Below, one piece after another: positions 4,976 through 47,797 of a stretch of 58,740 bases of DNA; position 1 is the first letter of the stretch, and every line of letters starts with the position of its first letter. The position numbers and the translations under genes are program-made. The stretch is from a virus. Taxonomy: Duplodnaviria; Caudoviricetes. The stretch is taken from positions 1 to 58,740 of IMG/VR virus record IMGVR_UViG_3300046170_000273, one strand, 5' to 3'. The notes beneath the pieces are model-generated. The model made no database searches and was not told the DNA's origin. It was given only the letters and a program-made list of their open reading frames with translations.

Positions 4976-7217
4976 CAAATAAGTCCATACCTTGTATCAC
5001 TGCAGAAGCTGCAAATCCACCTATTCCTGCTCTAGATAATAATCTTAATGCTGGTCCACGTAAACCTAATCTAGCTACCTTTTGAAGAGTTGGATTTAAT
5101 CCTCTAGTTAATTTTGGTGTTTGATCTGCAAATGCTGGATACAAATAGTTTAATGGATCTGTTGCTATATCTGTAAATGAGTCTCCTTCTGCAACTTGAC
5201 TAGCAATATCTCCAGCTGCAAAAGGTGCGAGTAGTGCAGGTGATGCTGCAATTCCAAGTCCTCTTCCTAAAACTCTTAAACCTGTTTTTGTTATACCTGG
5301 TCTTGGTTTTTTCTTTTCAATACCAAAAGCTCTAGACTTACTAGCTTTAATTGTTGATGGTGCAGCGAGTGCTGTTGACCCTGCAAGTGTTGCACCTAAT
5401 GCAGGTAATTGATAATCTAATATTGCAGGTCTTTCTATATCGATAGAAACAGGGTTTGTTGCCATATCAACCAACATATTTTTTTGTTGATCTTCATTTG
5501 ATAAATAAGTTGTTGGATCATCATTACTAAATGCTTTGACAAATCCTACAGCCGCTCCAACACCGGCACCGATACCAAATGTTTTTGGACCAGGTCCTTT
5601 TAAAAAATTTAAAAAACCTGTTGCTGCTTGTTTAAACTTACCTATCTTACTTGCATCATTTGCAAATTTTTTAGGGTTTTCTTGTATAGCTTCTTCGACA
5701 GCGTCGACACAACTTACAGTTCCCCCATTTGCTTTTTTAGTTCTAACAATTTTACATATAGGTCCGTTTGCTGCCGCATCTTCTCTTACATCAGAAAAAA
5801 GTTTGTAAGGATCTGTATCAAAACCTAATTGTTTTAGATTCTGCGATACTTTGGTTATTTCACCTTTTGGAATATTAGCCTGAGCTTCTTGAACTGCTTT
5901 AGCATTTTCCATAAAAAAATATCTATCAATAGGATTAGGTATTATTTTATCTATTGCTTTTATATTACCTCTAAAATTTTTTGGTGATACCTCCTGTATA
6001 CTTTTACCTTCAAAAAGACCAAAAGGGTCGATTGTTTTTGAAGAATCTAATCCTAAGCTATATATTTTTCTTGTAACAGGTTCTTCTACTTTAAAACTTT
6101 TATAACCTTTAGTTGCATAAGCAACAGCCGCTCCTTTATCATTAATTTTGTTTATTTTATCAATATATCCTTTTGGTTTATTTTTAAAAAGTTTGTCTCT
6201 TTCTTTGTAGAGTTGATTTAAATAAGGGTCTACGTTTTTTAATATTTCTTGATTTATTTGTTGAGGAGAATAACCAAGTGTTTGAAATTTAACCACCTGA
6301 CTTCCTAGGTCGTCCATGTGGGATAATTGAGATTCTTTACTGCCTTCCATAGCTCTTTCAAAAGCAGGAACACTAAATTTTTTAATTTTTTTCTTCCTAA
6401 CCTCTTGAACTTTTTTTGCAGACTCTTCTGGGTTAAAACCTTTTTCTTCTCTGTATTCTTTAACTAATGCAGCGGGAATTGCTTTTATGGTTTTTTCATT
6501 GATTAATTTAGAAACTAGTTTACGAACTCTCGACTCTTGAGTTGATGCCGGTAAATCAGGATAAAGTTTTTTACCCATCGTTTCACCCTTTAGTTTTCCA
6601 TAATTTTCTTTTACATATTTTAAAGATTCTGCATCTTCTAAATATGAAATATTAGGAGTGAGTGCACTATAACTTGTATTGTTATCTCTTAAAAGTTTTG
6701 CAATAGGTCTTGTGCTGGATTTATATGTTTCTGCTATTTCTTCTAATGTATCACCAGCTATAATTTTATTTTTAATTTTTTGTAAATCACCTTTTGGAAT
6801 TTTAGTGTTAGCATCGTATTTTGCTTTTTTTGCATCAGCCTGTGCAGCTAGTGCTTCTTTTTCTGAAGCAAAATATTCTATACTTGCTTTTGCTTTACCC
6901 TCCCCTCTTGTACTTCCAGATTTTTTATATCTCCAAGGTTTTTTTGGATCAGGTGGGTTTGCAACTTTTTTAACAGCAGGATCAAGGGCTCCTTGTTTTT
7001 TTATTTTATCTTGAATAATTTTATCTGTTTTTTTAACCCACTCATCTCTTTCTTTTTTAGCTATTTTTAATCCCGTAGGTGTGAAATCAAAATATTGTTT
7101 TTTTCCTGGAGCTCCTGTTCTCGATCCTCTAATAACATATTTTTTAGTTCCACTTGGATATGTGGCTTCGTATAGATATGGTTCGCCTTCTATTTTTTTA
7201 AAAACTGGTTGAGCCAT
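4968..7217 (-). CDS. Large putative internal/ejected protein: basic DNA-binding-like N-half, hydrophobic Gly/Ala C-half
   Basis: 749 aa between terL and portal; AP2-like and HTH-like segments; KANGG at the domain junction. Confidence 0.7.
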   Translation of the reverse strand: MAQPVFKKIEGEPYLYEATYPSGTKKYVIRGSRTGAPGKKQYFDFTPTGLKIAKKERDEWVKKTDKIIQDKIKKQGALDPAVKKVANPPDPKKPWRYKKSGSTRGEGKAKASIEYFASEKEALAAQADAKKAKYDANTKIPKGDLQKIKNKIIAGDTLEEIAETYKSSTRPIAKLLRDNNTSYSALTPNISYLEDAESLKYVKENYGKLKGETMGKKLYPDLPASTQESRVRKLVSKLINEKTIKAIPAALVKEYREEKGFNPEESAKKVQEVRKKKIKKFSVPAFERAMEGSKESQLSHMDDLGSQVVKFQTLGYSPQQINQEILKNVDPYLNQLYKERDKLFKNKPKGYIDKINKINDKGAAVAYATKGYKSFKVEEPVTRKIYSLGLDSSKTIDPFGLFEGKSIQEVSPKNFRGNIKAIDKIIPNPIDRYFFMENAKAVQEAQANIPKGEITKVSQNLKQLGFDTDPYKLFSDVREDAAANGPICKIVRTKKANGGTVSCVDAVEEAIQENPKKFANDASKIGKFKQAATGFLNFLKGPGPKTFGIGAGVGAAVGFVKAFSNDDPTTYLSNEDQQKNMLVDMATNPVSIDIERPAILDYQLPALGATLAGSTALAAPSTIKASKSRAFGIEKKKPRPGITKTGLRVLGRGLGIAASPALLAPFAAGDIASQVAEGDSFTDIATDPLNYLYPAFADQTPKLTRGLNPTLQKVARLGLRGPALRLLSRAGIGGFAASAVIQGMDLFDD

Positions 7218-8395
7218 TAGACCTCCAGGATCTTAGCTAAGCCACCACCTCTGAAAAGACCTTTCTCTCTTAATAGATCATCAATCTTATCTTTCAATGC
7301 TGGATCGCTGTCTGGATTTTTGAAAAACTTATATAGGTTTTTAAAATTTTTATTTGAACCTGCTTCACCACCTAAGTGTTTGAAGATTGCCGTCTTTTGT
7401 GCAGCTGTATATAAGCCTCTTACAATATTACCTGCACTATAACCTGGTCTTGCTAAACCACCATCTGCAAATTCAAAGTCATCTACCATTTCAGGATTAA
7501 ACGCTCTATCGGTAATTGTGTTACCTCTTGCGTCTTTTATCTTAACTAAATTTTCTGCAAAAGTTTGAATGTCGTCTGCGTTATCTAATTGTGCAACTGA
7601 CGATGCAACTTTGGGTCCAAAATATTTTTGTACTAATAACATAGGGTCGCCCATACCACCGCCACCACCTTCAGTCATAAATTTAAAATCATCTGCTTCC
7701 ATAATAGTAGACAATGATGGTCCACCTGGATTTGTTGGATCTTCTAAATCTTTTATTCTATTTAAAAACTCTCTAGCATTTGCTCTTGCAACAGGTTGAG
7801 CATTTGCTGATACACCGATATTTAAATAAATTTTATCTACAATATCATTTACAATTAAATTATTATTCTTAACATTTTTGATTGACTCAAGTCCTTCACC
7901 TGTAAATGGCGCTGCAATATCATCTGGTCCACCACGTGAACCTGGAGGTGGTAGATCATCTATCATACTTGATGGTAAGATTGTATCTCTTGGATCAACA
8001 CCTTCTGGTAAATCTACTTTTGATCTTAAAGACGCTAATCCTTCTTGATCTAAGTTTCTAGTTCTTGTCGCCATGTCTGTAATGTTTGCTGGCGCTGCAG
8101 ATGGAAAGTAAACTTCATCCATCTTCTGCATATTTTTTAAAAGCTGACCTGCTTGTATGTCATTCAGTTTACCTGATACAGCATAGCCAACAGAACTTTT
8201 TAATTCATCGACTGCTTTCGATCTTGGTAATACACCTAATGCTTCTGCGTTAATGTCCATGTCCAACATCAACTCTGGAGACTTACCCTTTCCTAAAAAA
8301 TTTACATTTGTTTTAGTCCCCATAACTTCATTTAAGTTTCCACCTAACTTTTTGTATAAAGCTAAAACTGCATCTAATGTTTGTTTCCTAGCCAT
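7217..8395 (-). CDS. Putative internal virion protein with FADGG and FRGGG tags
   Basis: 392 aa, overlaps the terL stop. Confidence 0.75.
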   Translation of the reverse strand: MARKQTLDAVLALYKKLGGNLNEVMGTKTNVNFLGKGKSPELMLDMDINAEALGVLPRSKAVDELKSSVGYAVSGKLNDIQAGQLLKNMQKMDEVYFPSAAPANITDMATRTRNLDQEGLASLRSKVDLPEGVDPRDTILPSSMIDDLPPPGSRGGPDDIAAPFTGEGLESIKNVKNNNLIVNDIVDKIYLNIGVSANAQPVARANAREFLNRIKDLEDPTNPGGPSLSTIMEADDFKFMTEGGGGGMGDPMLLVQKYFGPKVASSVAQLDNADDIQTFAENLVKIKDARGNTITDRAFNPEMVDDFEFADGGLARPGYSAGNIVRGLYTAAQKTAIFKHLGGEAGSNKNFKNLYKFFKNPDSDPALKDKIDDLLREKGLFRGGGLAKILEV

Positions 8396-9854
8396 AGTAT
8401 TCTAACCTACTTCTATCTGGTAGCGGTTCATCTTGATATGCATCTTTGTTACGAACCATGCCACCTTGTTTAATACGCATGATTGCCTGTGTTGTAGAGT
8501 CGACATAGTCATCGTGATCTCCAAACGGAAATGATGCGCACTCTTCCACAACCTCTTGAGCAAAATGTTCGTGCATAGGAGCCCAAATCATTCCCATCTC
8601 AAAAAGAGGTGCTACTGAGTTTACTCTAGCATGTTTATCATTTCCTCGGCTCGGCGTAAAGTTAATTACTGGAATTCCCATATCCCTCAATTCTGCTGTC
8701 AGAGGGATACCAGAGGCTTTGGCCTCCACGATCACCATGTCAGGACGCCAGTATAGATACTCTTCATGAGCAACTTTTCTAAGTTCTGGAAACTCATAAC
8801 GATCTTTAAAAGCATTGAGTAATATTATATTGGCTCTACCATCATCATCTTTGAAGACTCCCCACGTTGTAATAGCTGAAAAGTCGGCAGATTCTTTTTT
8901 AAGAAAAGCAGTATCGTAAGACTGAAGTATAAAATCACAGCTTGGTGGATTCTTATGTGTCCAATCTTGCCACCAGTCTCGTTTTAATATTGCACCTTCT
9001 TCAGCTGTTGGCTGTTGCATATACTGAGCATTCCAGTTGTTAACGGGAATAGATGCTTTGGTTTTCTCTAATTCATCCTTGGTCCAGTATTCCGGCCACA
9101 CGGGCTTTCCATCAGGAAGCAGGGCAGGTAGTTCTACAACTTCCCATTGATCAGAGTTCTCTTCTCCCTGAGCCTTGATTAATTGTCCAGTTATGTCCTT
9201 GGTACTCCAACGTGTCATAACCACCACGATACGACCTCCTGGTTGTAAACGTTGACGTGGACCTGATGTATACCAGTTCCATGCTTTATCAAACGACTTA
9301 CTATCTTTTTTAATATCTTGTTCTTTGTGTGGATCATCAATGATTAAAAGATCAGCACCACGACCTGTGATTGCTCCACCAACACCGGCTGCGAAGTATT
9401 CTCCTCCCTGTTCCGTTTTCCATTTACCAGCGGCTTGGGAGTCCTCCATCAATCTAGTGTCGAATAGTTGTTTGTAATTGGGTTGATCTACTAGGTTCTT
9501 GGTCTTACGGCCAAAGTCTATTGCTAGATCTGCCGTGTGTGTTGCTTGAATGATCTTTAACCGGGGATCGAGGCCAACCATCCATGCCGGGAGTAAGTAT
9601 GAGGCAAACTCCGACTTCGTGTGTCTTGGCGGCATGTTAATGATTAGTCTTTTAATTTTCCCGCTAGCGAGATCATTAAATTTTTTATTAATTTTTTTGT
9701 GATGAGAACCTTCAATAAACTCAGGCCAAACATACTTAACGAAGCTCAAAAAGTCTTTTTTGATTTTGGGTCTGGCTTTATCTAATTCTACACTCTTTTC
9801 TAGATCCAGAAGTCGTGCTCTTTCGTCTGGAGTCAATCCTGAAAAATTTTCCAT
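8388..9854 (-). CDS. terL: Terminase large subunit
   Basis: Walker A variant MPPRHTKS, GAITGRGADLLIIDDP (Walker B), VMTRW, nuclease DTA and HDDYVD. Confidence 0.96.
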   Translation of the reverse strand: MENFSGLTPDERARLLDLEKSVELDKARPKIKKDFLSFVKYVWPEFIEGSHHKKINKKFNDLASGKIKRLIINMPPRHTKSEFASYLLPAWMVGLDPRLKIIQATHTADLAIDFGRKTKNLVDQPNYKQLFDTRLMEDSQAAGKWKTEQGGEYFAAGVGGAITGRGADLLIIDDPHKEQDIKKDSKSFDKAWNWYTSGPRQRLQPGGRIVVVMTRWSTKDITGQLIKAQGEENSDQWEVVELPALLPDGKPVWPEYWTKDELEKTKASIPVNNWNAQYMQQPTAEEGAILKRDWWQDWTHKNPPSCDFILQSYDTAFLKKESADFSAITTWGVFKDDDGRANIILLNAFKDRYEFPELRKVAHEEYLYWRPDMVIVEAKASGIPLTAELRDMGIPVINFTPSRGNDKHARVNSVAPLFEMGMIWAPMHEHFAQEVVEECASFPFGDHDDYVDSTTQAIMRIKQGGMVRNKDAYQDEPLPDRSRLEYYG

Positions 9855-9960
9855 AAAATTTTTTATAATATTTTTAATATACCCTATTTTTGAAACCTTG
9901 GCTATAAGAGTCTAAATCTTACATATATGTATGACCTTGGGACCCCTTGTATATTATTAA

Positions 9961-9986
9961 GGGTGGGCCCTCCCTAGTTTTCAAGC
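9961..9986 (+). repeat. GGGTGGGCCCTCCC quasi-palindrome plus CAAGC (left boundary of the cassette region)
   Basis: Same 14-mer at 12367, 13116, 13598; variants at 12381 and 13080. Confidence 0.85.
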
Positions 9987-10035
9987 GAAAAATCAAGATG
10001 TAGTGGTACCTCTATTGGTACACACTAAATGTGGT

Positions 10036-10120
10036 TATGCAAAAAAGACATATGTTGTTTTTGCATACCCTAATGGGTTATTGTAGGATTTGTGGCTCAT
10101 ACCTAAACCACAAACCCTAG
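10036..10120 (-). terminator. Two tandem hairpins after the leftward early operon
   Basis: TATGCAAAAA/TTTTTGCATA and TAGGATTTGTGG/CCACAAACCCTA inverted repeats. Confidence 0.5.
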
Positions 10121-10128
10121 CGAGATAA

Positions 10129-10389
10129 TCAGAAAGGCATTTCCGATTGTTCTGTGTCTTTCACTTCATCAGTTAGTACAAGTGGTTTATCAACTGCACT
10201 AAAACTAACTTCTTGTAAGTGATAAGAAATTTGTTTCTTGTCCTCGTTCAATGTATCAAGAGCCAACAACTTTCTTATTGCATTAGTCAAGTTATACATT
10301 TCGGACTCGTGAATACGATAGTTCGTAGCCCACGAATATTTTTCTTTTTTAATTATGAAAAACTTTTTTTCATCTATTGGTTTTGTCAT
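10129..10389 (-). CDS. Hypothetical early protein
   Basis: 86 aa, AGGAG SD. Confidence 0.7.
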   Translation of the reverse strand: MTKPIDEKKFFIIKKEKYSWATNYRIHESEMYNLTNAIRKLLALDTLNEDKKQISYHLQEVSFSAVDKPLVLTDEVKDTEQSEMPF

Positions 10390-10467
10390 ATTATATTACT
10401 CCTAGTATAGTTAAAATAATGTAGCCATACAAAAGTACAGCTACATTAAAGATTGCTAATTGAATAC

Positions 10468-10659
10468 TCACAGCTTGATACTCCAACTATCACTCGCTGT
10501 TCTATATCCATCTTGGTCAACATCAAAATAAGTCATTAACATACGACCACTTTTTGATATCCAATATCTGCACTTATCTGTCCACAATGCATTTCTTGTT
10601 ATTGTTTTCTTATCACTTGCTGAAAAGTAAGTGATTTGAAAAGGTTTGTTATTTATCAT
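10468..10659 (-). CDS. Small WYL-like/SH3-fold hypothetical protein
   Basis: 63 aa; YFDVDQDGYRTA resembles phage WYL-like (DUF2693-type) proteins. Confidence 0.55.
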   Translation of the reverse strand: MINNKPFQITYFSASDKKTITRNALWTDKCRYWISKSGRMLMTYFDVDQDGYRTASDSWSIKL

Positions 10660-10691
10660 TTGTTTTCTCGCTTTCTATAACCTTATGTGGT

Positions 10692-10719
10692 TATGGGATT
10701 AATATACATTAATCCCATA
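10692..10719. promoter_or_regulatory. Perfect 12-bp-arm palindromic operator TATGGGATTAAT-ATAC-ATTAATCCCATA
   Basis: Intergenic; carries two TGGGAT boxes seen at other promoters. Confidence 0.65.
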
Positions 10720-10732
10720 GTTATTCAACAAA

Positions 10733-11734
10733 TTAATTCAAGTTATCCGAATTAATTTTCTGCTGTTGCATATATGCAACACGTTCTGCTATCTTTTGTT
10801 TTCTAGTTTTTTCAGTATTTTTCATACCTTTTATTCTTTCAGCTAGATTTTTCGGATTGTAAATAACAAGCCCTGTACTATTAGTTCTTATTATTTCGTG
10901 GTCAGTAATTTGAACATCAAGTTCATTTGCTAACTCAATCGCTTCATCTAACCATTTGTAGCCCTTTAATCCAATCTTGATTTCTTTCATTTGTTTCAAG
11001 ACTGAACTAATCCATTTTTCGTGAGCAACAATAAATTGACCTTTACTCGCTTTCCAAGAAACAAGAAAATTAAATTCTTGTTCGGTGCAAGCAATAGACC
11101 TATCACGACAATAATCACGACCAATTAAATCAAGATTATATTTTTCGTTCCACTCTTTACCATACTTGGTTTCATTGTTTCTTCCACCACTCAATCCAAG
11201 ATACTCATTGTTATTATCAACAAATTTTCTTTTGTGTGGATTGTCGTCTTTGTCAGCTTGTTCAATTAAGATATCAGCATTACAATTTTCTTGTGCGTTT
11301 ATCTCATCTCTAAACAAGGCAAAGCCATAACTACTATCACGACTAGAAGAATAATTGTTTTCAGTATCAATAGAACCATTTAATCTAAAATCAAAATGTT
11401 TCTCTATTGGTTTCTCAACCATTGATACATTTCCATTATAGTCTTTTTCTTCTGCTAGACCTTGATAGTGAAAATGAAAACAACTATCTTTTGCAATAGT
11501 TGAAACATTTTCAAACTTGTTTTGTAAGTAGTAAGCTTTTTCTACATCTTCATCTGTATAGTGTCGTCTTACTATGTCTTTTGCAACAGACCAAGCTTTG
11601 TCATTTATATCAACTTGTTCCCCTTTGAGAGTGTCATACTTTTTCTTCTCTTGGGTATCTTCTTGAAATAAAGACTGCTTGATACGATTTGCAACTTTGT
11701 TTCGGTACTCTTGGTTTAGTCTTATACGTGCCAT
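10733..11734 (-). CDS. Hypothetical early protein (333 aa)
   Basis: Long ORF, AGAGGA SD, downstream of a divergent promoter. Confidence 0.85.
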   Translation of the reverse strand: MARIRLNQEYRNKVANRIKQSLFQEDTQEKKKYDTLKGEQVDINDKAWSVAKDIVRRHYTDEDVEKAYYLQNKFENVSTIAKDSCFHFHYQGLAEEKDYNGNVSMVEKPIEKHFDFRLNGSIDTENNYSSSRDSSYGFALFRDEINAQENCNADILIEQADKDDNPHKRKFVDNNNEYLGLSGGRNNETKYGKEWNEKYNLDLIGRDYCRDRSIACTEQEFNFLVSWKASKGQFIVAHEKWISSVLKQMKEIKIGLKGYKWLDEAIELANELDVQITDHEIIRTNSTGLVIYNPKNLAERIKGMKNTEKTRKQKIAERVAYMQQQKINSDNLN

Positions 11735-11788
11735 TTGTCCTCTTTCTTTGTTAGTGTTTATATTTATTTATTTATTTCTTTTAAACTA

Positions 11789-11820
11789 TTGACTTTTAAA
11801 GTCAAGGGATTATATAAGAT
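11789..11820. promoter_or_regulatory. Divergent sigma70-like promoter region; TTGACT-TTTAA-AGTCAA gives a -35 on each strand
   Basis: Strand switch between 11734(-) and 11921(+); AGGGAT/TAAGAT boxes 10 bp apart. Confidence 0.6.
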
Positions 11821-11862
11821 AATATATTAATTTATAAAAACTTTAATATCAATTAAAGCATA

Positions 11863-11896
11863 CTTGCAGTTGGCAGTATAAAAACGCAACTGCAAG
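11863..11896 (+). promoter_or_regulatory. 5' leader stem-loop
   Basis: CTTGCAGTTG ... CAACTGCAAG, perfect 10-bp stem before the RBS. Confidence 0.6.
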
Positions 11897-11920
11897 TAGC
11901 ATAACAAGAAAGGACAGAAA

Positions 11921-12295
11921 ATGGCACTAAAATATTGCCAAAGTCATAAGTGCCATACTTATGACACAAAGGACAGAAAACGAGGTTCAAAAGATAACCG
12001 AAAAAATCAAACCAGAAGAAGATCAGAATTCTACTATGGTGGTGGAAATTTTTGCTCATTGAATTGCTACAATGATTGGGCAGATGATTTTATGAATAGA
12101 GCCATTGATCAAGTTTCTGGAAGATTACACGAACCTTTAACAATGAGTGAAGAAAATGCGTGGCGAAAAAGAAGAAGTTATAGTTTTGATAATGGAAATT
12201 ATCAACCAACTTATTTTTGGCATAATGCGTGTACAGGCGAGGACAGACAGATTACTGAAGAAGAATTCAGAAATCAATCTCAACCAAATTTATAG
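11921..12295 (+). CDS. Hypothetical Zn-finger early protein (CxxxxC...FCSLNC)
   Basis: 124 aa, AGAAAGGA SD; TRASH/MYM-like FCS motif. Confidence 0.75.
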   Translation: MALKYCQSHKCHTYDTKDRKRGSKDNRKNQTRRRSEFYYGGGNFCSLNCYNDWADDFMNRAIDQVSGRLHEPLTMSEENAWRKRRSYSFDNGNYQPTYFWHNACTGEDRQITEEEFRNQSQPNL

Positions 12296-12314
12296 TTTCA
12301 TCTGTCCTTGATGA

Positions 12315-12366
12315 TTTCCTAGTTTAGAACTATTCTAAACTAGGAAAAATTTTTTTTGTTTTTTTT
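12315..12366 (+). terminator. Intrinsic terminator
   Basis: TTTCCTAGTTTAGAA-CTA-TTCTAAACTAGGAAA perfect 15-bp stem, then T-tract. Confidence 0.75.
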
Positions 12367-12410
12367 GGGTGGGCCCTCCCGGGTGGGCCCAACCCCTCAA
12401 GCTTTAAGCT
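12367..12410 (+). repeat. Cassette head 1: tandem GGGTGGGCCC(TCCC) x2 plus CAAGC/TAAGCT
   Basis: Copies at 12367-12380 and 12381-12390. Confidence 0.85.
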
Positions 12411-12432
12411 GTGGATAACTTAAAAATAGTTA

Positions 12433-12462
12433 TTGACTTATTATAGGATAAAATGTTAAGTT
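12433..12462 (+). promoter_or_regulatory. sigma70-like promoter TTGACT-18-TAAGTT with TAGGAT in the spacer
   Basis: Upstream of the AAGGAG SD of 12490. Confidence 0.6.
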
Positions 12463-12489
12463 ATGCGAAACTAATAAAGGAGAAATAAA

Positions 12490-12885
12490 ATGGGACTAGA
12501 TCAATACGCAGGACTTCGAGATAGTAAGGGTGAAGTTCACGAAAAGTTTTATTGGAGAAAGCACGCACGCCTACAAGTGTTCTTTGCTAAACAATTCAAT
12601 AAACAGAAAAAAGATAAAGATCACAATACACATAGTGACCTACAACATTTAGGTTTTAATTGTGGTCAAGGTGGTGTTACAATTACTGAAGATGTAATCA
12701 AGGATCTGGAAGAGGCAATTAAAAATGGTTATTATAGTCATTTTGCTTCTGATGGTTTCTTCTGGGGTCAGCAATTCCAAGAAGAGCAGATTAAAGAATA
12801 CAAAGCCCAAGATGAAGAGTTTTTAAAATGGGCTAAAGAACAAATCAAAGAGGGTCGGCAAATCGGCTACGATTGTTCTTGGTAA
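12490..12885 (+). CDS. Conserved phage hypothetical protein (MGLDxY...YWRKH family)
   Basis: 131 aa, strong SD. Confidence 0.85.
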   Translation: MGLDQYAGLRDSKGEVHEKFYWRKHARLQVFFAKQFNKQKKDKDHNTHSDLQHLGFNCGQGGVTITEDVIKDLEEAIKNGYYSHFASDGFFWGQQFQEEQIKEYKAQDEEFLKWAKEQIKEGRQIGYDCSW

Positions 12886-12889
12886 AAAG

Positions 12890-12932
12890 TTTTGGGGGTG
12901 GCAAAGTCGGGCAAGTCCCACGCCCCCCAAAA
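12890..12932 (+). terminator. GC-rich hairpin after 12490..12885
   Basis: TTTTGGGGGTGG ... CCACGCCCCCCAAAA. Confidence 0.5.
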
Positions 12933-12934
12933 GC

Positions 12935-13058
12935 ATTTGGGCTAGTATAGGGCGCCTGGACGTTTCTGGGCTATATTCTAGGTCGCGGTGTCACTTTGGA
13001 GAACGTCCTCTCATTGTTCGAATTGGAAGAGGATCGCCTATTAGCCACTAGCCCAAAT
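12935..13058 (+). ncRNA. Candidate structured small RNA (unassigned)
   Basis: 12-bp closing stem ATTTGGGCTAGT/ACTAGCCCAAAT with nested stems, then T-tract; no ORF. Confidence 0.55.
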
Positions 13059-13079
13059 TAAATTTTTTTATTTTTTTTT

Positions 13080-13129
13080 GGGTGGGCCCGCCCATAGTTC
13101 ACAAGCTACAAGCTAGGGTGGGCCCTCCC
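13080..13129 (+). repeat. Cassette head 2: GGGTGGGCCCGCCC, CAAGCTA x2, GGGTGGGCCCTCCC
   Basis: Copies at 13080-13093 and 13116-13129. Confidence 0.85.
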
Positions 13130-13151
13130 TGAATAATTTAAAATTTTTTAG

Positions 13152-13180
13152 TTGACAAGCTAGCTGGGATATTGTAGGAT
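13152..13180 (+). promoter_or_regulatory. sigma70 promoter TTGACA-17-TAGGAT
   Basis: Consensus -35, TG extended -10, TGGGAT/TAGGAT boxes 10 bp apart. Confidence 0.8.
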
Positions 13181-13190
13181 GTATTTATCC

Positions 13191-13286
13191 CGTTTGATGG
13201 TATCCGGATTTAAAACTCAAACCATCACAACGCCGACCCCCTGAGGGAATAGCTTGAAAGATTAGCTCAATGCTCGGGGACTAGGC
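13191..13286 (+). promoter_or_regulatory. Structured 5' leader (two stem-loops)
   Basis: CGTTTGATGGT/ACCATCACAACG and CCCCTGAG/CTCGGGG stems before the AGAAAGGA SD. Confidence 0.5.
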
Positions 13287-13302
13287 ACAACAGAAAGGAT
13301 AT

Positions 13303-13542
13303 ATGACAACACAAACTGAAGAGAAAAAATACGAACGTAAGAACAGGTTCAACGGTGAGTCCGCAATGCTTACAGCTGATGAAGCTAAGAGACATGACCG
13401 GATCTTTACGAATGAGCTTGCAGCTACGCTGGAGGATAAGAAGCTAGGCTACGGCAGCTCTAAGCTATGGGACCAGGTCCGTAAGGATCTTAACTGGTTC
13501 AGGCAGCACAACGCCAGCGCTTACATGGCGTTACTTGATTAG
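13303..13542 (+). CDS. Conserved hypothetical early protein (...WFRQHNASAYMALLD)
   Basis: 79 aa, SD, own promoter. Confidence 0.8.
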   Translation: MTTQTEEKKYERKNRFNGESAMLTADEAKRHDRIFTNELAATLEDKKLGYGSSKLWDQVRKDLNWFRQHNASAYMALLD

Positions 13543-13550
13543 TCCGGATC

Positions 13551-13588
13551 AGGGCGCTTCGGGCCAGTACGGCCTTACCAGGCGCCCT
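13551..13588 (+). terminator. Hairpin AGGGCGC...GCGCCCT ending cassette 2
   Basis: Inverted repeat right after the stop; no clear U-tract. Confidence 0.4.
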
Positions 13589-13597
13589 TATCCACTG

Positions 13598-13664
13598 GGG
13601 TGGGCCCTCCCGTAAGGGGTCAAGCTACAAGCCCTCAAGCGCTCAAGCTTGACAGGCTACAAGC
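13598..13664 (+). repeat. Cassette head 3: GGGTGGGCCCTCCC plus five CAAGC
   Basis: 14-mer 13598-13611; CAAGC at 13621, 13628, 13636, 13644, 13660. Confidence 0.85.
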
Positions 13665-13677
13665 TCTATGTTATAAG
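13649..13677 (+). promoter_or_regulatory. sigma70 promoter TTGACA-17-TATAAG
   Basis: Near consensus, before the AGGAG SD of 13696. Confidence 0.75.
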
Positions 13678-13695
13678 ATATTATAGGAGAATATT

Positions 13696-14298
13696 ATGTT
13701 AAAAAAAGAAGCAAGAAAAATAACAGGCGGCCTGAGTAAGCCGTCGAAGATGCCAGGACCAGCGCACAACCTGCCGGCCGTGGCATGTAAGACTGGCGCT
13801 AAGCTGGTGAAGGTCCCGGGCTCAGTATGCGCGGGCTGTTACGCCCTGAAGGGGCGCTATAGATTTAACAATGTACAGCAGGCATTGCAACGACGCCTGG
13901 CAGCGCTCGAGGATCCGCGCTGGGTGGATGCGATGGTAACATTGATTAAGGACCAGGACTGGTTCAGGTGGCATGACTCAGGAGACATCCAGAGCATGAA
14001 GCATCTAGAAAATATATTTTTAGTGTGCAAGCGTACAAGCAAGACCAGACACTGGATGCCAACGCGCGAAGCGCAATTCCTGAAAAATTTAGATCCGGCC
14101 ACAGTTCCGCCAAATTTAATAATTAGAATGAGTTCACACATGATAGACCAGGGACCAGTTAAGCAATGGCCCTGGACGTCGACAGTCACCAGCGGAAGCG
14201 GCAGGACGTGCCCGGCCCCTGAACAGGAGAACAGCTGCGGGAGCTGCAGACAATGCTGGGACAGGTCCACACCAAACGTGTGTTACGGTAAACATTAA
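13696..14298 (+). CDS. GP88-family Cys-rich protein (radical-SAM-like)
   Basis: SKMPG, C..CAGCYA, FRWHDSGD, CPA...CGSCRQCW motifs. Confidence 0.85.
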   Translation: MLKKEARKITGGLSKPSKMPGPAHNLPAVACKTGAKLVKVPGSVCAGCYALKGRYRFNNVQQALQRRLAALEDPRWVDAMVTLIKDQDWFRWHDSGDIQSMKHLENIFLVCKRTSKTRHWMPTREAQFLKNLDPATVPPNLIIRMSSHMIDQGPVKQWPWTSTVTSGSGRTCPAPEQENSCGSCRQCWDRSTPNVCYGKH

Positions 14299-14299
14299 T

Positions 14300-14500
14300 A
14301 TGGAATTCAAACACCCGAAGTATTACGCTGCGCTCAGGAAGCAGGGCCGCAAGCCTACAAGCTCTCAAGCTCCAAGCGACAAGCGTCCCAACCCACGCTC
14401 AAGGGTTCAAGCTTCAAGCCAGAGTTCACAAGCTTCAGGATCTGATGACCAGGGTACAAGCGCACAAGCCCACGGTCCGGGGTACAAGCAACAAGGATAA
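14300..14500 (+). CDS. Short ORF with low-complexity S/Q/A tail made of CAAGC repeats
   Basis: ATG 1 nt after the GP88 stop; FKHPKYY N-terminus; overlaps the opposite-strand nuclease. Confidence 0.45.
   Translation: MEFKHPKYYAALRKQGRKPTSSQAPSDKRPNPRSRVQASSQSSQASGSDDQGTSAQAHGPGYKQQG
14350..14496 (+). repeat. Strand-polar CAAGC repeat array (11 exact copies, many 7-8 bp apart)
   Basis: CAAGC at 14350, 14358, 14366, 14373, 14380, 14408, 14415, 14429, 14457, 14465, 14485. Confidence 0.8.
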
Positions 14501-14720
14501 AGGTGTTCTGTGGGTGCTTCACGTGGAAGGCTACCTGGTGGGGTGAAAAGCGAATTTTGTCACCCAATGTCACCTTCAACTCTACTGTAAAAAAGGACCC
14601 ACTAATAGCATAGCCCAACAAATCGGGAGTACCATGTAAGCTACGATTCTCAAGGCGATTCCATGATATTTTTGTAATTTTTCTTTTAAGTTCATTGTAT
14701 AATTTAGCTTCTGGTTTCAG
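14355..14720 (-). CDS. VRR-NUC/Holliday-junction-resolvase-like PD-(D/E)XK nuclease, probable CTG start
   Basis: (L/M)KPEAKLY...RLEN...GTPDLL...TVELK...SPHQ; GAGGT SD 8 nt before CTG at 14720. Confidence 0.75.
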   Translation of the reverse strand: MKPEAKLYNELKRKITKISWNRLENRSLHGTPDLLGYAISGSFFTVELKVTLGDKIRFSPHQVAFHVKHPQNTFILVACTPDRGLVRLYPGHQILKLVNSGLKLEPLSVGWDACRLELESL

Positions 14721-14738
14721 GTGGGGTACCTCAGCTAA

Positions 14739-14966
14739 TTATAGTTTGCCAATTATCTTTGGCATCTTCCATGTTCCACCAAGTTCAACACCTTTTAAAT
14801 TTAAAATGTGAGTGTCTCTATCACCAATCATTCGAGATTCCAACAACTCAATTACCCCAAGGTCTAATTTTTCTCCGTTAGGCATTTGAATTTGTACTCT
14901 GGCATTTTGTGCCGCGGGTGATACTAGGAATTTGTCTAGATATTGTCGTAATTCTTTGGCTTTCAT
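14739..14966 (-). CDS. Hypothetical protein
   Basis: MKAKELRQYLDKF...; start 14966 follows a minus-strand TTGCAA-17-TATATA. Confidence 0.7.
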   Translation of the reverse strand: MKAKELRQYLDKFLVSPAAQNARVQIQMPNGEKLDLGVIELLESRMIGDRDTHILNLKGVELGGTWKMPKIIGKL

Positions 14967-14971
14967 AAGTA

Positions 14972-15004
14972 TTGATATATATCCCACAAATGTATATATT
15001 GCAA
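14972..15004. promoter_or_regulatory. Overlapping divergent promoters (+: TTGATA-17-TATATT; -: TTGCAA-17-TATATA) with ATCCCA box
   Basis: Sits at the strand switch. Confidence 0.55.
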
Positions 15005-15006
15005 GT

Positions 15007-15486
15007 ATGAGTCAAGAAATTGTCAAAAAGAAGGCACAGCCAATTACAGATTTAACAGAGATGCAGAGAAGATTCTGTGAGTATCTTATATTCAATGAAG
15101 GTAGAACAACCTTTGCCGAAGCTGCTAGACATGCTGGATACAGCCCAGATAGAGCTAACAGAGAAGGCTCAGAGTTAATGAGAAACCCGAAGATTCAAAA
15201 CTATATAGCTAAGAGATCAGCAGACGTTAATAGAGCATTTGCTGTAACCAAACATAACTATGTAAGAAGACAACAGAACCTATCACAAAAACTTGTAGAT
15301 GATGGTAAGATCAAAGACGCATTAGGATTTGAGACATTGATTGGTAAAGCTACAGGACAATTCAGTGAAACTAATTACAATGTAAATATCAATGCAACAG
15401 ACATTAAAGAACGTGAGGCAGAAATAAAACGACTCAAAGAATTAAACGAGAAAAGAATCACAGATACAAAGCTGCTTAAAGAGTAA
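15007..15486 (+). CDS. terS: Terminase small subunit
   Basis: LTEMQRRFCEY...AEAARHAGYS...LMRNPKIQNYI HTH signature. Confidence 0.8.
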   Translation: MSQEIVKKKAQPITDLTEMQRRFCEYLIFNEGRTTFAEAARHAGYSPDRANREGSELMRNPKIQNYIAKRSADVNRAFAVTKHNYVRRQQNLSQKLVDDGKIKDALGFETLIGKATGQFSETNYNVNINATDIKEREAEIKRLKELNEKRITDTKLLKE

Positions 15487-16969: not shown

Positions 16970-17112
16970 CGTTTCCTGTAGCCTGTTCCCTTGTCCCTGT
17001 TGCCCCAACGTTTCTGCCAGGACCAAGTATTTAGTTTACTGCTTAGACTTTCCAAGATGTTTAGAAACCAATCTATAATCCCCCAAGTCCACGATATTAT
17101 TATATTTTTCAT
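16960..17112 (-). CDS. 50-aa Trp-rich peptide overlapping the LAGLIDADG 3' end
   Basis: ...WFLNILESLSSKLNTWSWQKRW...; fills the gap in the operon. Confidence 0.4.
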   Translation of the reverse strand: MKNIIISWTWGIIDWFLNILESLSSKLNTWSWQKRWGNRDKGTGYRKRWK

Positions 17113-17488
17113 CTGTGTAATGTTCTATAATCTGTTGTATTTTAGGTAGTTTAGTATGCGCATATGGCCATAAAAGTCTACAAACATAGAACGCATCTCT
17201 GAATGTACACCTCCACTTCCATTGCATCAAGTATTTTGTACCATCTTTTCGTAAACCTTTTCGAGGTTTACGGTTGACAGTTCCAACATTTAATACTTCA
17301 TGCATCCATCGTATAACAGACTCATCTGTCATAGTGACTTCCATACTAATTCGTTGAGACATAGAGGTTCTATAACCTTTGCCTTTATGTTTCTTTTTCT
17401 TCTCTATTCTTCTAGCAAAATAAATACTACCTTCGCCATCAAAGAGTCCTGCTATATAAGCTATATCCTCACTGCTCAGTGTAGTCAC
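17036..17488 (-). CDS. Free-standing single-motif LAGLIDADG endonuclease-like protein
   Basis: YIAGLFDGEGSI motif, GTG start with SD. Confidence 0.85.
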   Translation of the reverse strand: MTTLSSEDIAYIAGLFDGEGSIYFARRIEKKKKHKGKGYRTSMSQRISMEVTMTDESVIRWMHEVLNVGTVNRKPRKGLRKDGTKYLMQWKWRCTFRDAFYVCRLLWPYAHTKLPKIQQIIEHYTDEKYNNIVDLGDYRLVSKHLGKSKQ

Positions 17489-17705
17489 GCACCCTCTTTT
17501 CGTAAGATGGTCCGTCTCTGAGTCTAGCTTTAAATTTTTCTACCTCATCCTCTTTCCATTGAGTTGCTTCTTTTAGCTCAGCTTCTAACTTTTTAATCTG
17601 AGCACCTGCACGTCTACATGTTGCTTGTAAGAATTTTACTTTACCCTCAAGAGCTTCTTTGTTGTCTTTCAAATGTTTAATTTGACTTTCTTTGTCTATC
17701 AACAT
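17469..17705 (-). CDS. Coiled-coil hypothetical protein
   Basis: 78 aa, GGAGG SD. Confidence 0.65.
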   Translation of the reverse strand: MLIDKESQIKHLKDNKEALEGKVKFLQATCRRAGAQIKKLEAELKEATQWKEDEVEKFKARLRDGPSYEKRVRDYTEQ

Positions 17706-17856
17706 CTTCTTCTACCTCCTCTTCTATTTCACCTTGGTTGTTGCAAAAATCACAATCAGCCCATTGTTCTTCTCTGACCTGTTCGTATGGGACTCGGACA
17801 AAACCGTTTCCATTACAAACAGAGCAGATTACTTTACGCGTTTTTGAGTTTGCCAT
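17677..17856 (-). CDS. DnaJ-type zinc-finger mini-protein (not in ORF track)
   Basis: CSVCNGNG ... CDFCNNQG, 59 aa. Confidence 0.75.
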   Translation of the reverse strand: MANSKTRKVICSVCNGNGFVRVPYEQVREEQWADCDFCNNQGEIEEEVEEDVDRQRKSN

Positions 17857-18832: not shown

Positions 18833-18975
18833 CGACCTTGGCCATGATATTTTTTGAAGCTACGTCGTTTTGATTTATTCATTTTGCATTTACTAGGATT
18901 TCTACCTATACTTGTTTTGTGAAATATAGGTTCGTGTGCAACTTTTGCGTATAAACCTTTAGCTTTCTTGGCCAT
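18829..18975 (-). CDS. 48-aa basic peptide ending YHGQGR (not in ORF track)
   Basis: MAKKAKG...MNKSKRRSFKKYHGQGR. Confidence 0.65.
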   Translation of the reverse strand: MAKKAKGLYAKVAHEPIFHKTSIGRNPSKCKMNKSKRRSFKKYHGQGR

Positions 18976-19180
18976 CTTCTATCTGTTCAAAGTATTTTGA
19001 TATTTGTTTTGGGTTTTGTAATTTAGGTATGTATCTTATAGATCCATTTACATGTTGTTCTAGATCTGCACCACAACTAACACATCTATAAAATTCTCTA
19101 CTCAAACCAATTAACATTGTAAGTTCTTCGCATGTCGGACACTTTCCATTAACTATTTCTGTATAAATTTTTAAAGACAT
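18959..19180 (-). CDS. Zn-ribbon protein (CPTC...CVSC)
   Basis: 73 aa, two CxxC. Confidence 0.75.
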   Translation of the reverse strand: MSLKIYTEIVNGKCPTCEELTMLIGLSREFYRCVSCGADLEQHVNGSIRYIPKLQNPKQISKYFEQIEDGQES

Positions 19181-46447: not shown

Positions 46448-47797
46448 CTATTGAAATTTATATCTTATTATTACTATACCTGAACCACCAGAACCACCTA
46501 CTCCACTTGGTCCACCACCATTACTTCCACCGCCACCACCGCCTGTGTTGTCAGTTCCATTTGTAGCCGCAACAGAACTTCCTGGATAGGGTCCAGATGC
46601 ACCACAACCACCGCCACCAGGGCCTCCTGTTCCTTTATTAGCAGGGTCAGATCCACCACCGCCACCTCCAGCGAATGTTGTTGCTGATCCATTGATACTT
46701 GTTGTTGCTCCTGCACCTCCAGGTCCACCTGTACCTGATCCTGCATTTCCTCCAACTGCAGTAGCACCGCCACCGCCTCCTTGTGCGTAAGGTGGAGCAT
46801 CACGAGTTGTTCCTGCATTATTACCTTGAGGGGGAGTTGTTGGTGGAGTATTTCCTGCAGCACCTGATCTTGCAGTACAACCTGTTCCGGTAGCACCAGC
46901 CGATCCTCCAGAGCCACCAGCATCTGCAGCACAAACTCGACCACCTGCACCACCACCTGCTGAACTAATCGTACTAAAAGTTGAAACACTTCCGGGTGCG
47001 CCTTTAGTATAAGGAGATGATTCATCAGATGCCCCTCCACCACCAACTGCAATAGGAAAACCTGTTGCTGTTACTGTAATTCTATTTCCAGGTGTTGAAT
47101 ATCCATCTAAAGGACTTGCCGTATAAGGTGTGGCTGGAGATTTTAATTCTCTAAAACCACCTGCTCCACCTGCTCCACCTCTATCGTGAGCTGATCCACC
47201 ACCTCCAGCTACTACAACATAAGAAACTAAATTATTAGCAGCGCAACCTGATACAGAACTAACTGTAAAAGTTCCATCGCTCGTAAATGTATGAATTTTG
47301 TCATCACCACAAGTAGTTATTGTTCCTCCAGTTGCTACCATAAAAGATTCACCTGCAAAAGTTGATGAATCATCTTGTGTTGCTACCCATCCTTGAGTTG
47401 CATCTACATAAACTAAAAATATTGAAGCACCAGCAGTTTTTATAACTACATCAGCATCAGAGGCACCATTAATAGGAGATCCACCTCTACCAATTGTTAA
47501 ATTAGCAGTTGCAAAATTTCCGTTATAATCTTTTAATCCTACAATATCTCCTGCACTAGGAGAACTAGGAAGTGTTAAAGTAAAAGCTCCACTTGCTGCT
47601 GTATCACAAAAATATCCTTCTCCTGATACTGCAGTAAAGTTAGTTGTCTTTTTTGTAGTAACCCAGTTTACTGTTCCTGTTCTACCAAATCCTGTTTGAG
47701 TTGCACCACAAGCCAAAGTTACTGCTGTGCCTGGCCCACCTAATTCTAGGGTGCTTCCATTTCGTTTATCTATTTTATTTACTTTAACTGTGCTCAT
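46448..47797 (-). CDS. Glycine-rich tail fibre 3
   Basis: TLPSSPSAGD domain, VVAGGG...GGSGIVIIRY. Confidence 0.85.
   Translation of the reverse strand: MSTVKVNKIDKRNGSTLELGGPGTAVTLACGATQTGFGRTGTVNWVTTKKTTNFTAVSGEGYFCDTAASGAFTLTLPSSPSAGDIVGLKDYNGNFATANLTIGRGGSPINGASDADVVIKTAGASIFLVYVDATQGWVATQDDSSTFAGESFMVATGGTITTCGDDKIHTFTSDGTFTVSSVSGCAANNLVSYVVVAGGGGSAHDRGGAGGAGGFRELKSPATPYTASPLDGYSTPGNRITVTATGFPIAVGGGGASDESSPYTKGAPGSVSTFSTISSAGGGAGGRVCAADAGGSGGSAGATGTGCTARSGAAGNTPPTTPPQGNNAGTTRDAPPYAQGGGGGATAVGGNAGSGTGGPGGAGATTSINGSATTFAGGGGGGSDPANKGTGGPGGGGCGASGPYPGSSVAATNGTDNTGGGGGGSNGGGPSGVGGSGGSGIVIIRYKFQ

Follow-up and report, generated by a model that had tools for sequence, protein, structure and literature searches.

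The 58,740-base IMG/VR record IMGVR_UViG_3300046170_000273, analyzed over its whole length and called the window below, carries between its terL and terS genes six copies of a 14-bp GC-rich near-palindrome, the GC box. The boxes stand in spacers between small genes and keep a fixed register with short direct repeats of CAAGC (heptads). We propose that these sites are composite junctions resembling the promoter/stem-loop (PeSL) elements of T4-type phages, in which the box-heptad unit would act both as a protein-binding boundary or operator site and as a homology patch for the exchange of gene cassettes. This reading is given a probability of about 0.55. It starts from direct observations on the anatomy of the junctions, their conservation, their strand bias and the variable content of the cassettes that they separate. 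The nearest cultured relatives of the window phage are Pelagibacter phages HTVC027P and HTVC023P.

A GC-rich box recurs in the spacers between terL and terS

The exact 14-mer GGGTGGGCCCTCCC is located at 9961, 12367, 13116 and 13598. The copy at 13080 has one mismatch (T>G) and the copy at 12381 has two. All six are on the plus strand, lie between open reading frames (ORFs) and are confined to 9961–13611. A box search of the window returned 12 rows against 0.02 expected, a number reached by none of 100 shuffled sequences; the minus-strand rows are the same sites read again as a near-palindrome. The 10-mer core GGGTGGGCCC occurs six times forward and never in reverse in the 58,740-base record, and its backwards control occurs once. 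The box at 9961 is flanked by terL (8388–9854, minus strand) and the minus-strand ORF at 10129–10389, and the others fall among the plus-strand ORFs at 11921–12295, 12490–12885, 13303–13542 and 13696–14298. CAAGC is concentrated in the same region: of its 38 copies on the forward strand of the genome, 26 are inside 9900–14600. A preliminary description made from the letters of this DNA had reported a GC-rich near-palindrome present six times, intergenic, in one orientation and only here, and the window-wide counts bear this out. Its observation that the boxes at 9961 and 12367 bracket the divergent unit at 10129–12295 also stands, and both copies are near-universal anchors.

The box is conserved in position and strand among relatives

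The relatives are the eighty IMG/VR TerL loci with TerL 73–99% identical to that of the window. The core occurs 127 times in these loci, in 117 unique 120-nucleotide (nt) contexts or 110 unique 80-nt contexts, and always on the strand opposite to terL, the exception being three perfect-palindrome boxes that match both strands. Of the 56 loci with at least 250 nt of DNA upstream of terL, 54 have a box no more than 300 nt before the gene; the other two reflect an ORF-start artefact, and their box is 207 nt upstream of the TerL match in both. The anchors found near-universally are this copy upstream of terL and a second that adjoins the terminator T-tract following the ORF at 11921–12295 (o124). 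Two complete relatives have five boxes each, on a single strand, within about 3.5 kb. The consensus from the 110 unique contexts is corrected to GGGTGGGCCCNCCC, with N being G in 68, T in 27, C in 12 and A in 3, and CCC fills positions 12–14 in 100 of them. The preliminary description had allowed that relatives might lack the motif, or that the copies might be one recent duplication without conservation. The box is instead present in relatives across the range of 73–99% TerL identity, and because its copies are conserved over that range it is not a recent duplication.

The exact 14-mer was found in at least 149 IMG/VR stretches. Among the matches listed, 114 of 152 unique contexts have heptads, an abutting T-tract or the terL-upstream block GTGGTACCTCTAT nearby. 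The other 38 comprise 20 contexts in loci with a G+C of at least 0.52, which are probably chance matches, and 18 in AT-rich loci with other boxes or upstream heptads; about 130 of these 152 contexts are of the junction type. Phage 023Pt_psg01 keeps the 10-mer core and has a different right half, and no box was found in the 19-kb stretches of HTVC027P and HTVC023P examined.

The box and the CAAGC heptads form a unit between predicted terminator and promoter

As judged from sequence, the functional unit is the box, 7–8 nt and CAAGC, set between a terminator and a sigma-70-like promoter. The first CAAGC follows the box after 7–8 nt in 65 of the 110 unique contexts and after 5–10 nt in 84, and successive heptads are spaced by 7 nt (101 cases) or 8 nt (93 cases). 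The commonest box-to-box spacing is 34–36 nt, equal to one box plus two heptads, with 14 nt and 55–59 nt also found, and other contigs have up to three units in tandem. Upstream of the box, 45 of the 110 contexts are of the terL type with GGGACCCC, 21 have an abutting T-tract at zero spacing, 17 a heptad within 3 nt, 13 GTGGTACCTCTAT, two another box and 12 something else. The unit is found on either side of GTGGTACCTCTAT depending on the subclade, with its register kept, and therefore behaves as a self-contained module.

In 16 of 23 unique T-tract contexts the T-tract and box come after a hairpin with z < −2 (median z −5.5), and at least four different stem sequences are used, which predicts that the hairpins are real intrinsic terminators kept by compensatory change. 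Promoters downstream of the boxes are a predicted TTGACA-17-TAGGAT (13152–13180) and, recognized by eye, TTGACA-17-TATAAG (13649–13677) and TTGACT-18-TAAGTT (12433–12462), and equivalent sigma-70-like promoters are present in relatives by sequence match. The box-heptad unit thus appears to occupy the spacer between the terminator of one transcription unit and the promoter of the next, and in the GP88 promoter heptads lie on both sides of the −35 element (Table 1). The repeated order of hairpin/T-tract, box, CAAGC and promoter given in the preliminary description largely holds, with the boxes at 12367 and 13080 adjoining T-tracts, except that the box at 13598 has none. A TRGGAT box, listed there as one element of this order, is three different things: the −10 hexamer at 13175–13180, a word 5 nt past the −35 at 12444–12449 and the Shine-Dalgarno sequence TAGGAG at 13686. 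TRTAGGAT is not enriched, with six found against 4.4 expected.

A hairpin formed by a single box was ruled out; it folds no better than shuffled sequences (z 0.14 and 0.13). Two neighboring boxes can pair, with a DNA fold z of −3.2 for 13074–13135, and the tandem pair at 12367–12394 reads GGG-N1-GGG-N7-GGG-N1-GGG.

HTVC027P has CAAGC heptads and no box. Immediately before the TTGACA of its gp33 and gp34 stand heptads spaced at exactly 7 bp, and past gp33 there is a larger array. Because these promoters carry them, the heptads would be older than the box and tied to a distinct delayed-early class. In tables of PMC12753301, the leftward HTVC027P genes gp35 and gp39 are labeled Early, with very high transcripts per million for gp35, and gp33 (the GP88 homologue) and gp34 constitute 'extra cluster 2', which is high at 6–9 h; gp32 belongs to the middle class and terS and terL to the late one. 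The labels of gp33 and gp34 differ between two of these tables, being 'Middle'/'Early' in one and 'Extra cluster 2' in the other. As far as these tables go, the heptad-promoter genes gp33 and gp34 are a separate early-to-middle class. The genes of the region had been called early at the outset, which by homology to HTVC027P fits the leftward block and not GP88 and the neighboring rightward genes, which would be early-to-middle. As a separate observation, HTVC023P has neither boxes nor CAAGC arrays, and its terS–terL interval has, at 4152–4344 and 6667–7083 of the stretch examined (L238), other repeat families: three repeats of about 30 nt after terS, and TTGAGAATAACAACGAAA-type repeats.

Cassette content varies together with box number

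The cassette slot is defined as the DNA from o124 to GP88, and 16 genomes have both genes on the plus strand. The slot is 339–1426 nt long in these genomes and holds one to five boxes and zero to two ORFs (three in one genome) from about nine ORFan families: o131 in 10 genomes, o79 in five, F116, F82 and F161 in two each, and F204, F154, F326 and F470 in one each. None of the 15 cassette ORFs reached the Pfam cut-off. Slots with at least two cassettes have four or five boxes, and those with zero or one have one to three. Extra cassettes between terL and terS bring extra boxes, so gene content is not outright independent of the motif; it was such independence that the preliminary description had named as counting against its proposal.

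In HTVC027P and in the subclade with 73% TerL identity, homologues of o79, F116 and o124 belong to the leftward early operon, and the same small genes therefore occupy different places and orientations. The identities of individual genes are incongruent with those of TerL: o131 is 90% identical in a relative with 80% TerL identity and 68% identical in one with 95%, and o124 is 66% identical in relatives with 99%.

The most recurrent edges of replaced segments are at 12380, 13062, 13129–13142 and 13594. One relative (L040) is without cassette A between the T-tract and box modules (12380 and 13060), another (L020) has cassette B replaced between 13129 and 13596, and four more (L019, L062, L086 and L038) break at 13143 and 13592–13644. 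Identity to L008, L009 and L020 rises at the box at 13598 from below 50% to above 92%, in three of three comparisons. At the level of contigs, metagenome assemblies of four public runs branch at 12366, 13054/5, 13113/4 and 13633. The claim that breakpoints of gene gain and loss fall on the motif is borne out descriptively by these recurrent edges at boxes; two formal tests of it are not significant, as set out below. We read the edges as exchange of cassettes together with, or between, junction modules, and they do not demonstrate the 14-mer itself as the crossover point.

Candidate proteins in the window

Pfam searches with 15 + 48 proteins and PHROG searches with 40 found no helix-turn-helix, ribbon-helix-helix, integrase or transposase domain, and Pfam and PHROG scans of the window ORFs found no tyrosine or serine recombinase, HUH or relaxase-like gene. 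The earlier remark that no recombinase is evident holds for site-specific enzymes in these scans; nucleases of general recombination are present. One is a phage exonuclease (phrog_298, E 1.5e-49). The conserved protein of about 126 residues with the GTPD...ELK signature gives weak matches to Hjc resolvases (PDB 1ob8 profile, E 0.46; Pfam Hjc in two of seven members, best E 0.014), and its window copy at 14355–14720 matches no Pfam family. The small ORFs of the window include Zn-ribbon ORFs at 17677–17856 and 18959–19180.

The model of GP88 has a predicted local distance difference test (pLDDT) score of 95.6 and an alpha/beta barrel-like enzyme fold. Its best matches are radical-SAM enzymes (SPL, QueE, PFL-AE and viperin) at Z scores of 5.0–5.8, below the noise level of about 8. 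Foldseek gave no match at E ≤ 0.001, there is no sequence relative in the PDB, and the structure atlas returned GP88 clusters only. Because the model best matches radical-SAM enzymes, if weakly, GP88 would not be an obvious DNA binder. The GP88 family (PF17338) is very large: a cut-off of E ≤ 0.001 gives 2,548 representative clusters, and its close homologues exceed 7,999. It has seven invariant cysteines and an RWHDSGD motif. The model of the 333-residue leftward protein (o333), the top early protein, has a pLDDT of 72.9 and no Foldseek match at E ≤ 0.001.

Several candidates were set aside. The product of o124 was dropped as a reader of the box because a family member sits in HTVC027P. The window also has a free-standing, single-motif LAGLIDADG endonuclease in its replication module (17036–17488, minus strand; PF00961, E 4.4e-05; annotated as HNH endonuclease by PHROGs), which was dropped for the same role because HTVC027P, a phage with no box, has an annotated homologue. 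A sigma-32-like reading of the minus-strand GCTTGA was abandoned; its transcripts would directly enter a bidirectional terminator. As to a structured RNA, Rfam gave no match over the whole window at gathering thresholds, and at E ≤ 1 the interval 9800–15100 gave only a chance snoRNA match (E 0.54). A host regulon was rejected on the count of the core: a set of 300 other Pelagibacteraceae genomes contains it 21 times, spread over 20 of them, and the reversed control matches 12 times; nine of ten host sites examined do not have the right half of the box, and most of these are coding-like. One of these genomes has, in a 2,989-base contig (L254; G165:C50), a full GGGTGGGCCCGCCC with no heptads within 56 nt downstream, which could be a phage fragment or a chance match. 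Fixed DNA ends were rejected as well: the distances from contig ends to the box have no peak apart from a 300-nt fetch artefact.

A model of exchangeable junctions and its rivals

In the reading proposed here, the terL–terS region would be hyperplastic and of early/delayed-early type, with composite junction modules interspersed along it. A module would run 5′ to 3′ on the plus strand from the preceding terminator through one to three box-heptad units, a promoter and a leader with a Shine-Dalgarno sequence to a small ORFan. A unit would measure about 27–36 bp and consist of GGGTGGGCCCNCCC, 7–8 nt and CAAGC heptads, and the promoter would be a strong one of the host sigma-70 type, often overlapped by further heptads. 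Lying in untranscribed spacer, the unit would be a double-stranded DNA site for a sequence-specific protein that sets the boundaries or timing of nearby promoters, and heptads that straddle a −35 would lead to repression or timing. The reader of the box is probably a conserved phage protein rather than a host regulator. We infer this protein binding and the regulatory role from the anatomy, and the location of the crossovers from the recurrent edges. The units are the only near-identical DNA among unrelated cassettes, and it is proposed for this reason that general homologous recombination deletes, inserts and swaps cassettes. Exchange would take place within a genome or between co-infecting relatives, by the phage exonuclease and perhaps the Hjc-like nuclease, and would require no dedicated recombinase.

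A number of results weigh against this model. Edge clusters within 30 nt of a box number 7 of 61 (6.8% expected, p 0.12), and 7 of 31 when only intergenic clusters are counted (24% expected, p 0.63). Within 15 nt, over 12100–13900 in 15 loci, they number 7 of 36 (10% expected, p 0.07), and 7 of 22 for non-coding clusters (24% expected, p 0.26); the loci are related, so these counts and p-values are not independent. Many edges are at ORF ends (12314, 12891 and 13693), the box-free leftward operon (10129–10659) varies as well, and conserved islands in divergent spacers give border edges even without a crossover there. On the regulatory side, Pfam searches of 48 small ORFs and PHROG searches of 40 larger ones gave no DNA-binding regulator. 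Ten invariant bases would be unusual for a phage-encoded binder while the proteins have diverged to 40–70% identity. The distance from the end of the box to the −35 varies from about 19 to 38 nt in the window and its relatives, which argues against a face-of-helix activator. The box also appears dispensable for GP88-type promoters, because at least eight of the 16 slot genomes and HTVC027P have heptads without a box there. The promoters, start sites and terminators are sequence predictions throughout.

Repeats, T-tracts and a DnaA-like box in one interval could also mark a replication origin, with the heptads as iterons, the T-tracts as unwinding elements, the GC boxes as clamps or initiator sites and the DnaA-like box recruiting host DnaA. 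Heptad arrays flank GP88 in every relative mapped, including HTVC027P and 023Pt_psg01, the exact TGTGGATAA at 12410 recurs in many relatives, the T-tracts are 17–20 nt long, HTVC023P has other repeat families in the same interval, and gp33 peaks with the middle genes in the tables of PMC12753301. An origin nevertheless seems unlikely. Units of seven bases are short for iterons, three or more of them in series are unexpected for one origin, and one CAAGC array overlaps a coding region; DnaA-box matches at one mismatch or fewer number 15 against 20 expected, with the DnaA-like box missing in several relatives, and the fold of GP88 is nearest to radical-SAM enzymes (Z 5.0–5.8, below noise) and not to a DNA-binding initiator. 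It is also improbable that the box works through structure without a dedicated binder, as a downstream clamp for weak AT-rich terminators or as an insulating cruciform or G-quadruplex. Downstream DNA reportedly affects termination in T3 and T7 terminator work, few G-C pairs are found in the terminator stems (4 of 15), and the zero spacing of T-tract and box in 21 of the 110 unique contexts, the pairing of neighboring boxes and the four GGG runs of the tandem pair would all suit such a role. A clamp could be made of any GC-rich run, whereas here ten bases are invariant and the CAAGC register is fixed; moreover, 45 of the 110 contexts are of the terL type without a T-tract, and the single box folds no better than shuffles (z 0.1).

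The position of the unit between terL and terS, with an anchor copy beside terL in all relatives, would agree with a terminase pac site or a strand-specific nick site, as would its one-strand orientation in every genome and the fixed palindrome-N7/8-pentamer architecture. Nicks of this kind are known from T5 and phiKMV, and oriT-like sites combine an inverted repeat with a cut about 8 nt downstream. We regard this as very unlikely. The box stays invariant in relatives whose terS falls to 23–47% identity, the start positions of three complete relatives differ, contig ends keep no preferred distance to the box, the contigs of four public runs, which cannot show ends, list no place where many molecules start or stop, no HUH or relaxase-like gene was detected by Pfam or PHROGs in the window, and six pac cut sites within 3.7 kb would fragment the genome. 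A TerS-specific pac site is unlikely for the first of these reasons, terS identity spanning 23–99% overall. The suggestion in the preliminary description of stop or processing sites for staged DNA entry or packaging found no support, given the same variable genome starts, the lack of a fixed contig-end distance and terS identity as low as 23%. Dedicated, integron-like site-specific recombination, with an unrecognized phage protein recombining box-heptad units and mobilizing cassettes as circles, would explain the uniform orientation, the scaling of cassette number with box number and the recurrent edges at boxes; many genes are of unassigned function, and the gene of the weakly Hjc-like nuclease overlaps a heptad array. 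The edges spread over the modules and ORF ends and do not mark one crossover point, each cassette has its own promoter, unlike integron cassettes, the Pfam and PHROG scans found no recombinase, transposase or HUH domain, and o333 has no structural match, all of which makes this possibility highly improbable. A related and doubtful idea is that GGGTGGGCCCNCCC-N7/8-CAAGC is a cis site at which a conserved phage protein reads the box and catalyzes or directs strand-specific cutting and exchange. If this were true, the phage would own an integron-like exchanger for early host-takeover genes without a known recombinase family.

Comparison with known systems

Among known systems, the junctions come closest to the PeSL elements found in T4-type phages (Arbiol et al. 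2010, PMC2839356; Comeau et al. 2014, PMC4122927). As presented in these papers, a PeSL combines a strong sigma-70-like promoter with a terminator stem-loop and is repeated in hyperplastic regions, flanking ORFans (PMC2839356). Through PeSLs each cassette is expressed and insulated on its own, and they are proposed there as patches of homology at which indels and replacements arise with no dedicated recombinase; the authors also speculate on a binder for a GGGG...CCCC motif. The modules of the window likewise have a predicted sigma-70-like promoter and terminator, are repeated and flank ORFans. They belong to a podovirus-like HTVC023P-type pelagiphage and not to a T4-like myovirus, and the sequences are unrelated; a PHROG scan found no T4-like gene set in the window, so PeSL membership by descent does not apply. 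The modules also differ in having an extra invariant 14-bp box in fixed register with CAAGC between terminator and promoter, in that the GC-rich element is not the terminator stem, and in occupying one region per genome rather than many. The analogy drawn in the preliminary description therefore fits the promoter, terminator and ORFan anatomy; recurrent edges lie at the modules, without significant enrichment. By this comparison the junctions of the window are best regarded as an analogue of PeSL and not a member. The box is not accounted for by promoter or terminator function and is new relative to PeSL.

Integrons share with the window arrays of small, unrelated genes in one orientation, imperfect palindromic repeats and a varying number of cassettes. 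The structured attC sites of integrons are 57–141 nt long, in contrast to a 14-bp repeat of which a single copy does not fold; no integrase was found in the Pfam and PHROG scans of the window, and each window cassette has its own predicted promoter and terminator. The ribbon-helix-helix repressor omega of pSM19035 represses cooperatively from operators of heptad repeats, which recalls the 7–8-bp direct repeats upstream of and across the −35 here. Pfam found no ribbon-helix-helix protein among the window ORFs, and the window repeat differs in sequence, is coupled to a GC box and has one array in a coding region. In the incC-repA-incA region of P1, iteron arrays flank the rep gene, as repeats over the promoter and a larger array downstream flank GP88; the P1 iterons are 17–22 bp in contrast to window units of 7–8 bp, and the GP88 fold is, weakly, that of a radical-SAM/Fe-S enzyme.

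No description of the box was found in the phage literature searched, and among the matches listed for the box string none concerned phage regulation, in agreement with the initial statement that the motif was not recognized from any described system. The titles and opening abstract lines listed for pelagiphage intergenic regions describe no such motif, and the text of PMC9599517 contains no mention of promoter, palindrom, intergenic, hypervariable or terminal repeat.

Most early genes of these pelagiphages are ORFans, and the clade is one of the most abundant phage groups of the ocean, infecting SAR11 bacteria. A searchable junction word is a handle for cataloguing its accessory early genes in metagenomes. 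The junctions would be a second, independent case of PeSL-style modular shuffling, in another lineage and host, which suggests that the strategy is general. The 27-bp unit is a defined probe for a regulator or boundary factor in a phage group without recognizable transcription regulators, and the junctions would help explain assembly breaks next to terL in these phages.

Other features of the region and genome

The features from terL to terS are collected in Table 1.

Table 1. Features of the terL–terS region in window coordinates
Position	Strand	Feature	Remarks
9916–9947	−	−10-like TGTAAGAT (complement of 9914–9921) with TGGGACCCCT (9938–9947) at the −35 position; putative late terL promoter	conserved columns in 52 unique terL-upstream sequences
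9961–9986	+	GC box 1 (9961–9974), 7 nt, CAAGC (9982–9986)	terL-side anchor
10003–10015	+	GTGGTACCTCTAT	most invariant block upstream of terL in 52 unique sequences
10033–10114		two hairpins (10033–10070, about 10089–10114) at the end of the leftward operon	putative terminator; inverted repeat I18
10129–11734	−	leftward operon with ORFs of 86, 63 and 333 residues	homologues of HTVC027P gp36 and gp35
11735–11920		divergent promoter region	no box
11921–12295	+	o124, Cys-rich basic ORF of 124 residues, first rightward gene	no Pfam or PHROG family
12315–12366	+	predicted intrinsic terminator: 15-bp hairpin (12315–12347) and T-tract (12350–12366)	DNA fold z −6.9
12367–12394	+	GC boxes 2 and 3 in tandem	second anchor; zero spacing to the T-tract
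12398–12462	+	CAAGC/TAAGC; TGTGGATAA (12410–12418); TTGACT (12433), 18 nt, TAAGTT (12457), TG (12454)	promoter by eye
12490–12885	+	cassette A ORF (o131), ORFan of 131 residues	in 10 of 16 genomes
12889–13079	+	structured 3′ region with long-range stem 12936–12946/13047–13057, then T-tract (13063–13079)	RNA fold −62.2 kcal/mol, z −2.0
13080–13129	+	GC box 4, two CAAGC (13102, 13109), GC box 5	36-bp box-heptad unit repeated
13152–13180	+	TTGACA-17-TAGGAT inside CTGGGATATTGTAGGAT	predicted promoter
13303–13542	+	cassette B ORF (o79), 79 residues; homologue is gp39 of the HTVC027P early leftward operon	in 5 of 16 genomes; other ORFans elsewhere
13598–13677	+	GC box 6, five CAAGC heptads (13621–13664) straddling TTGACA (13649–13654), TATAAG (13672–13677)	
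13696–14298	+	GP88-family gene; closes the variable slot	PF17338, E 8.9e-29
14350–14489	+	CAAGC array, 11 copies mostly 7–8 bp apart	overlaps the 3′ end of a minus-strand gene
14355–14720	−	conserved gene of about 126 residues, GTPDLLGY...FFTVELK	window copy without ATG, GTG or TTG where relatives start
15010–15486	+	terS, right border	PF03592, E 5.3e-13

The word TGGGACCCCT occurs once in the window. Together with GTGGTACCTCTAT it is more deeply conserved than the GC box: GTGGTACCTCTAT is also found upstream of terL in HTVC027P and HTVC023P, and both of these phages without a box (L236 and L238) keep GGTACCTCTAT and a GGGACCC-type element upstream of terL. Throughout the HTVC023P-type group, the two words may serve as late-promoter or packaging signals. 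At the other border, terS is strongly mosaic, with 23–99% identity to the window in genomes with TerL 80–99% identical, which suggests from the alignments an allelic replacement of terS independent of terL.

Within the slot, TGTGGATAA, which we take to be the DnaA-box consensus, has its sole exact copy in the genome at 12410–12418, between the anchor boxes and the promoter of cassette A; the exact word is conserved in many relatives and absent from several, and a one-mismatch copy, TTATCCACT, adjoins the box at 13598. An 11-bp long-range stem closes a structured region of about 170 nt at the 3′ end of cassette A (12889–13057). A hairpin of the form TTTG-NNGG ... CCNN-CA is common to the leaders of o79 and F116 (13185–13235; L008 and L019), with compensatory changes in three genomes. 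The CAAGC array at 14350–14489 does not lie between genes; it overlaps the 3′ end of the conserved minus-strand gene. Because the last 45 or so codons of that gene overlie the array, the plus-strand ORF at 14300–14500 is probably spurious.

The window is a whole IMG/VR record marked 'linear' and rated 96% complete, and from its genes it is taken to be a near-complete HTVC023P-type pelagiphage. TerL (8388–9854, minus strand) is 66% identical to that of 023Pt_psg01, 63% to that of HTVC027P and 56% to that of HTVC023P, and megablast found no near-identical cultured phage. PHROGs and Pfam identify portal, capsid, tail, DNA polymerase A, primase, helicases, exonuclease, endolysin and TerS among the window ORFs and no RNA polymerase, integrase or recognizable transcription regulator; no tRNA or tmRNA was found in the window. 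Nearly all genes are on the minus strand except the rightward block at 11921–15486. The G+C content is 49% at 13–14 kb against about 35% elsewhere in the window. Complete relatives (three) begin at different positions.

Single-cell genomes link the clade to its host. A 59,509-base contig in a Pelagibacteraceae single-cell genome (L246; G006:C7) has its five boxes at the positions of an IMG/VR relative with 99% TerL identity, and a second SAR11 single-cell genome (L241) has a 20-kb fragment that bears boxes. Because single-cell contigs carry the boxes, a direct host linkage, a SAR11 host fits the clade. Finally, CTGGGATATTRTAGGAT-like words are found at 10073, 13164 and 18807 on the plus strand and at 47536 and 56337 on the minus strand, five against 0.26 expected at up to three mismatches, and may be a phage promoter or operator signature beyond the −10.

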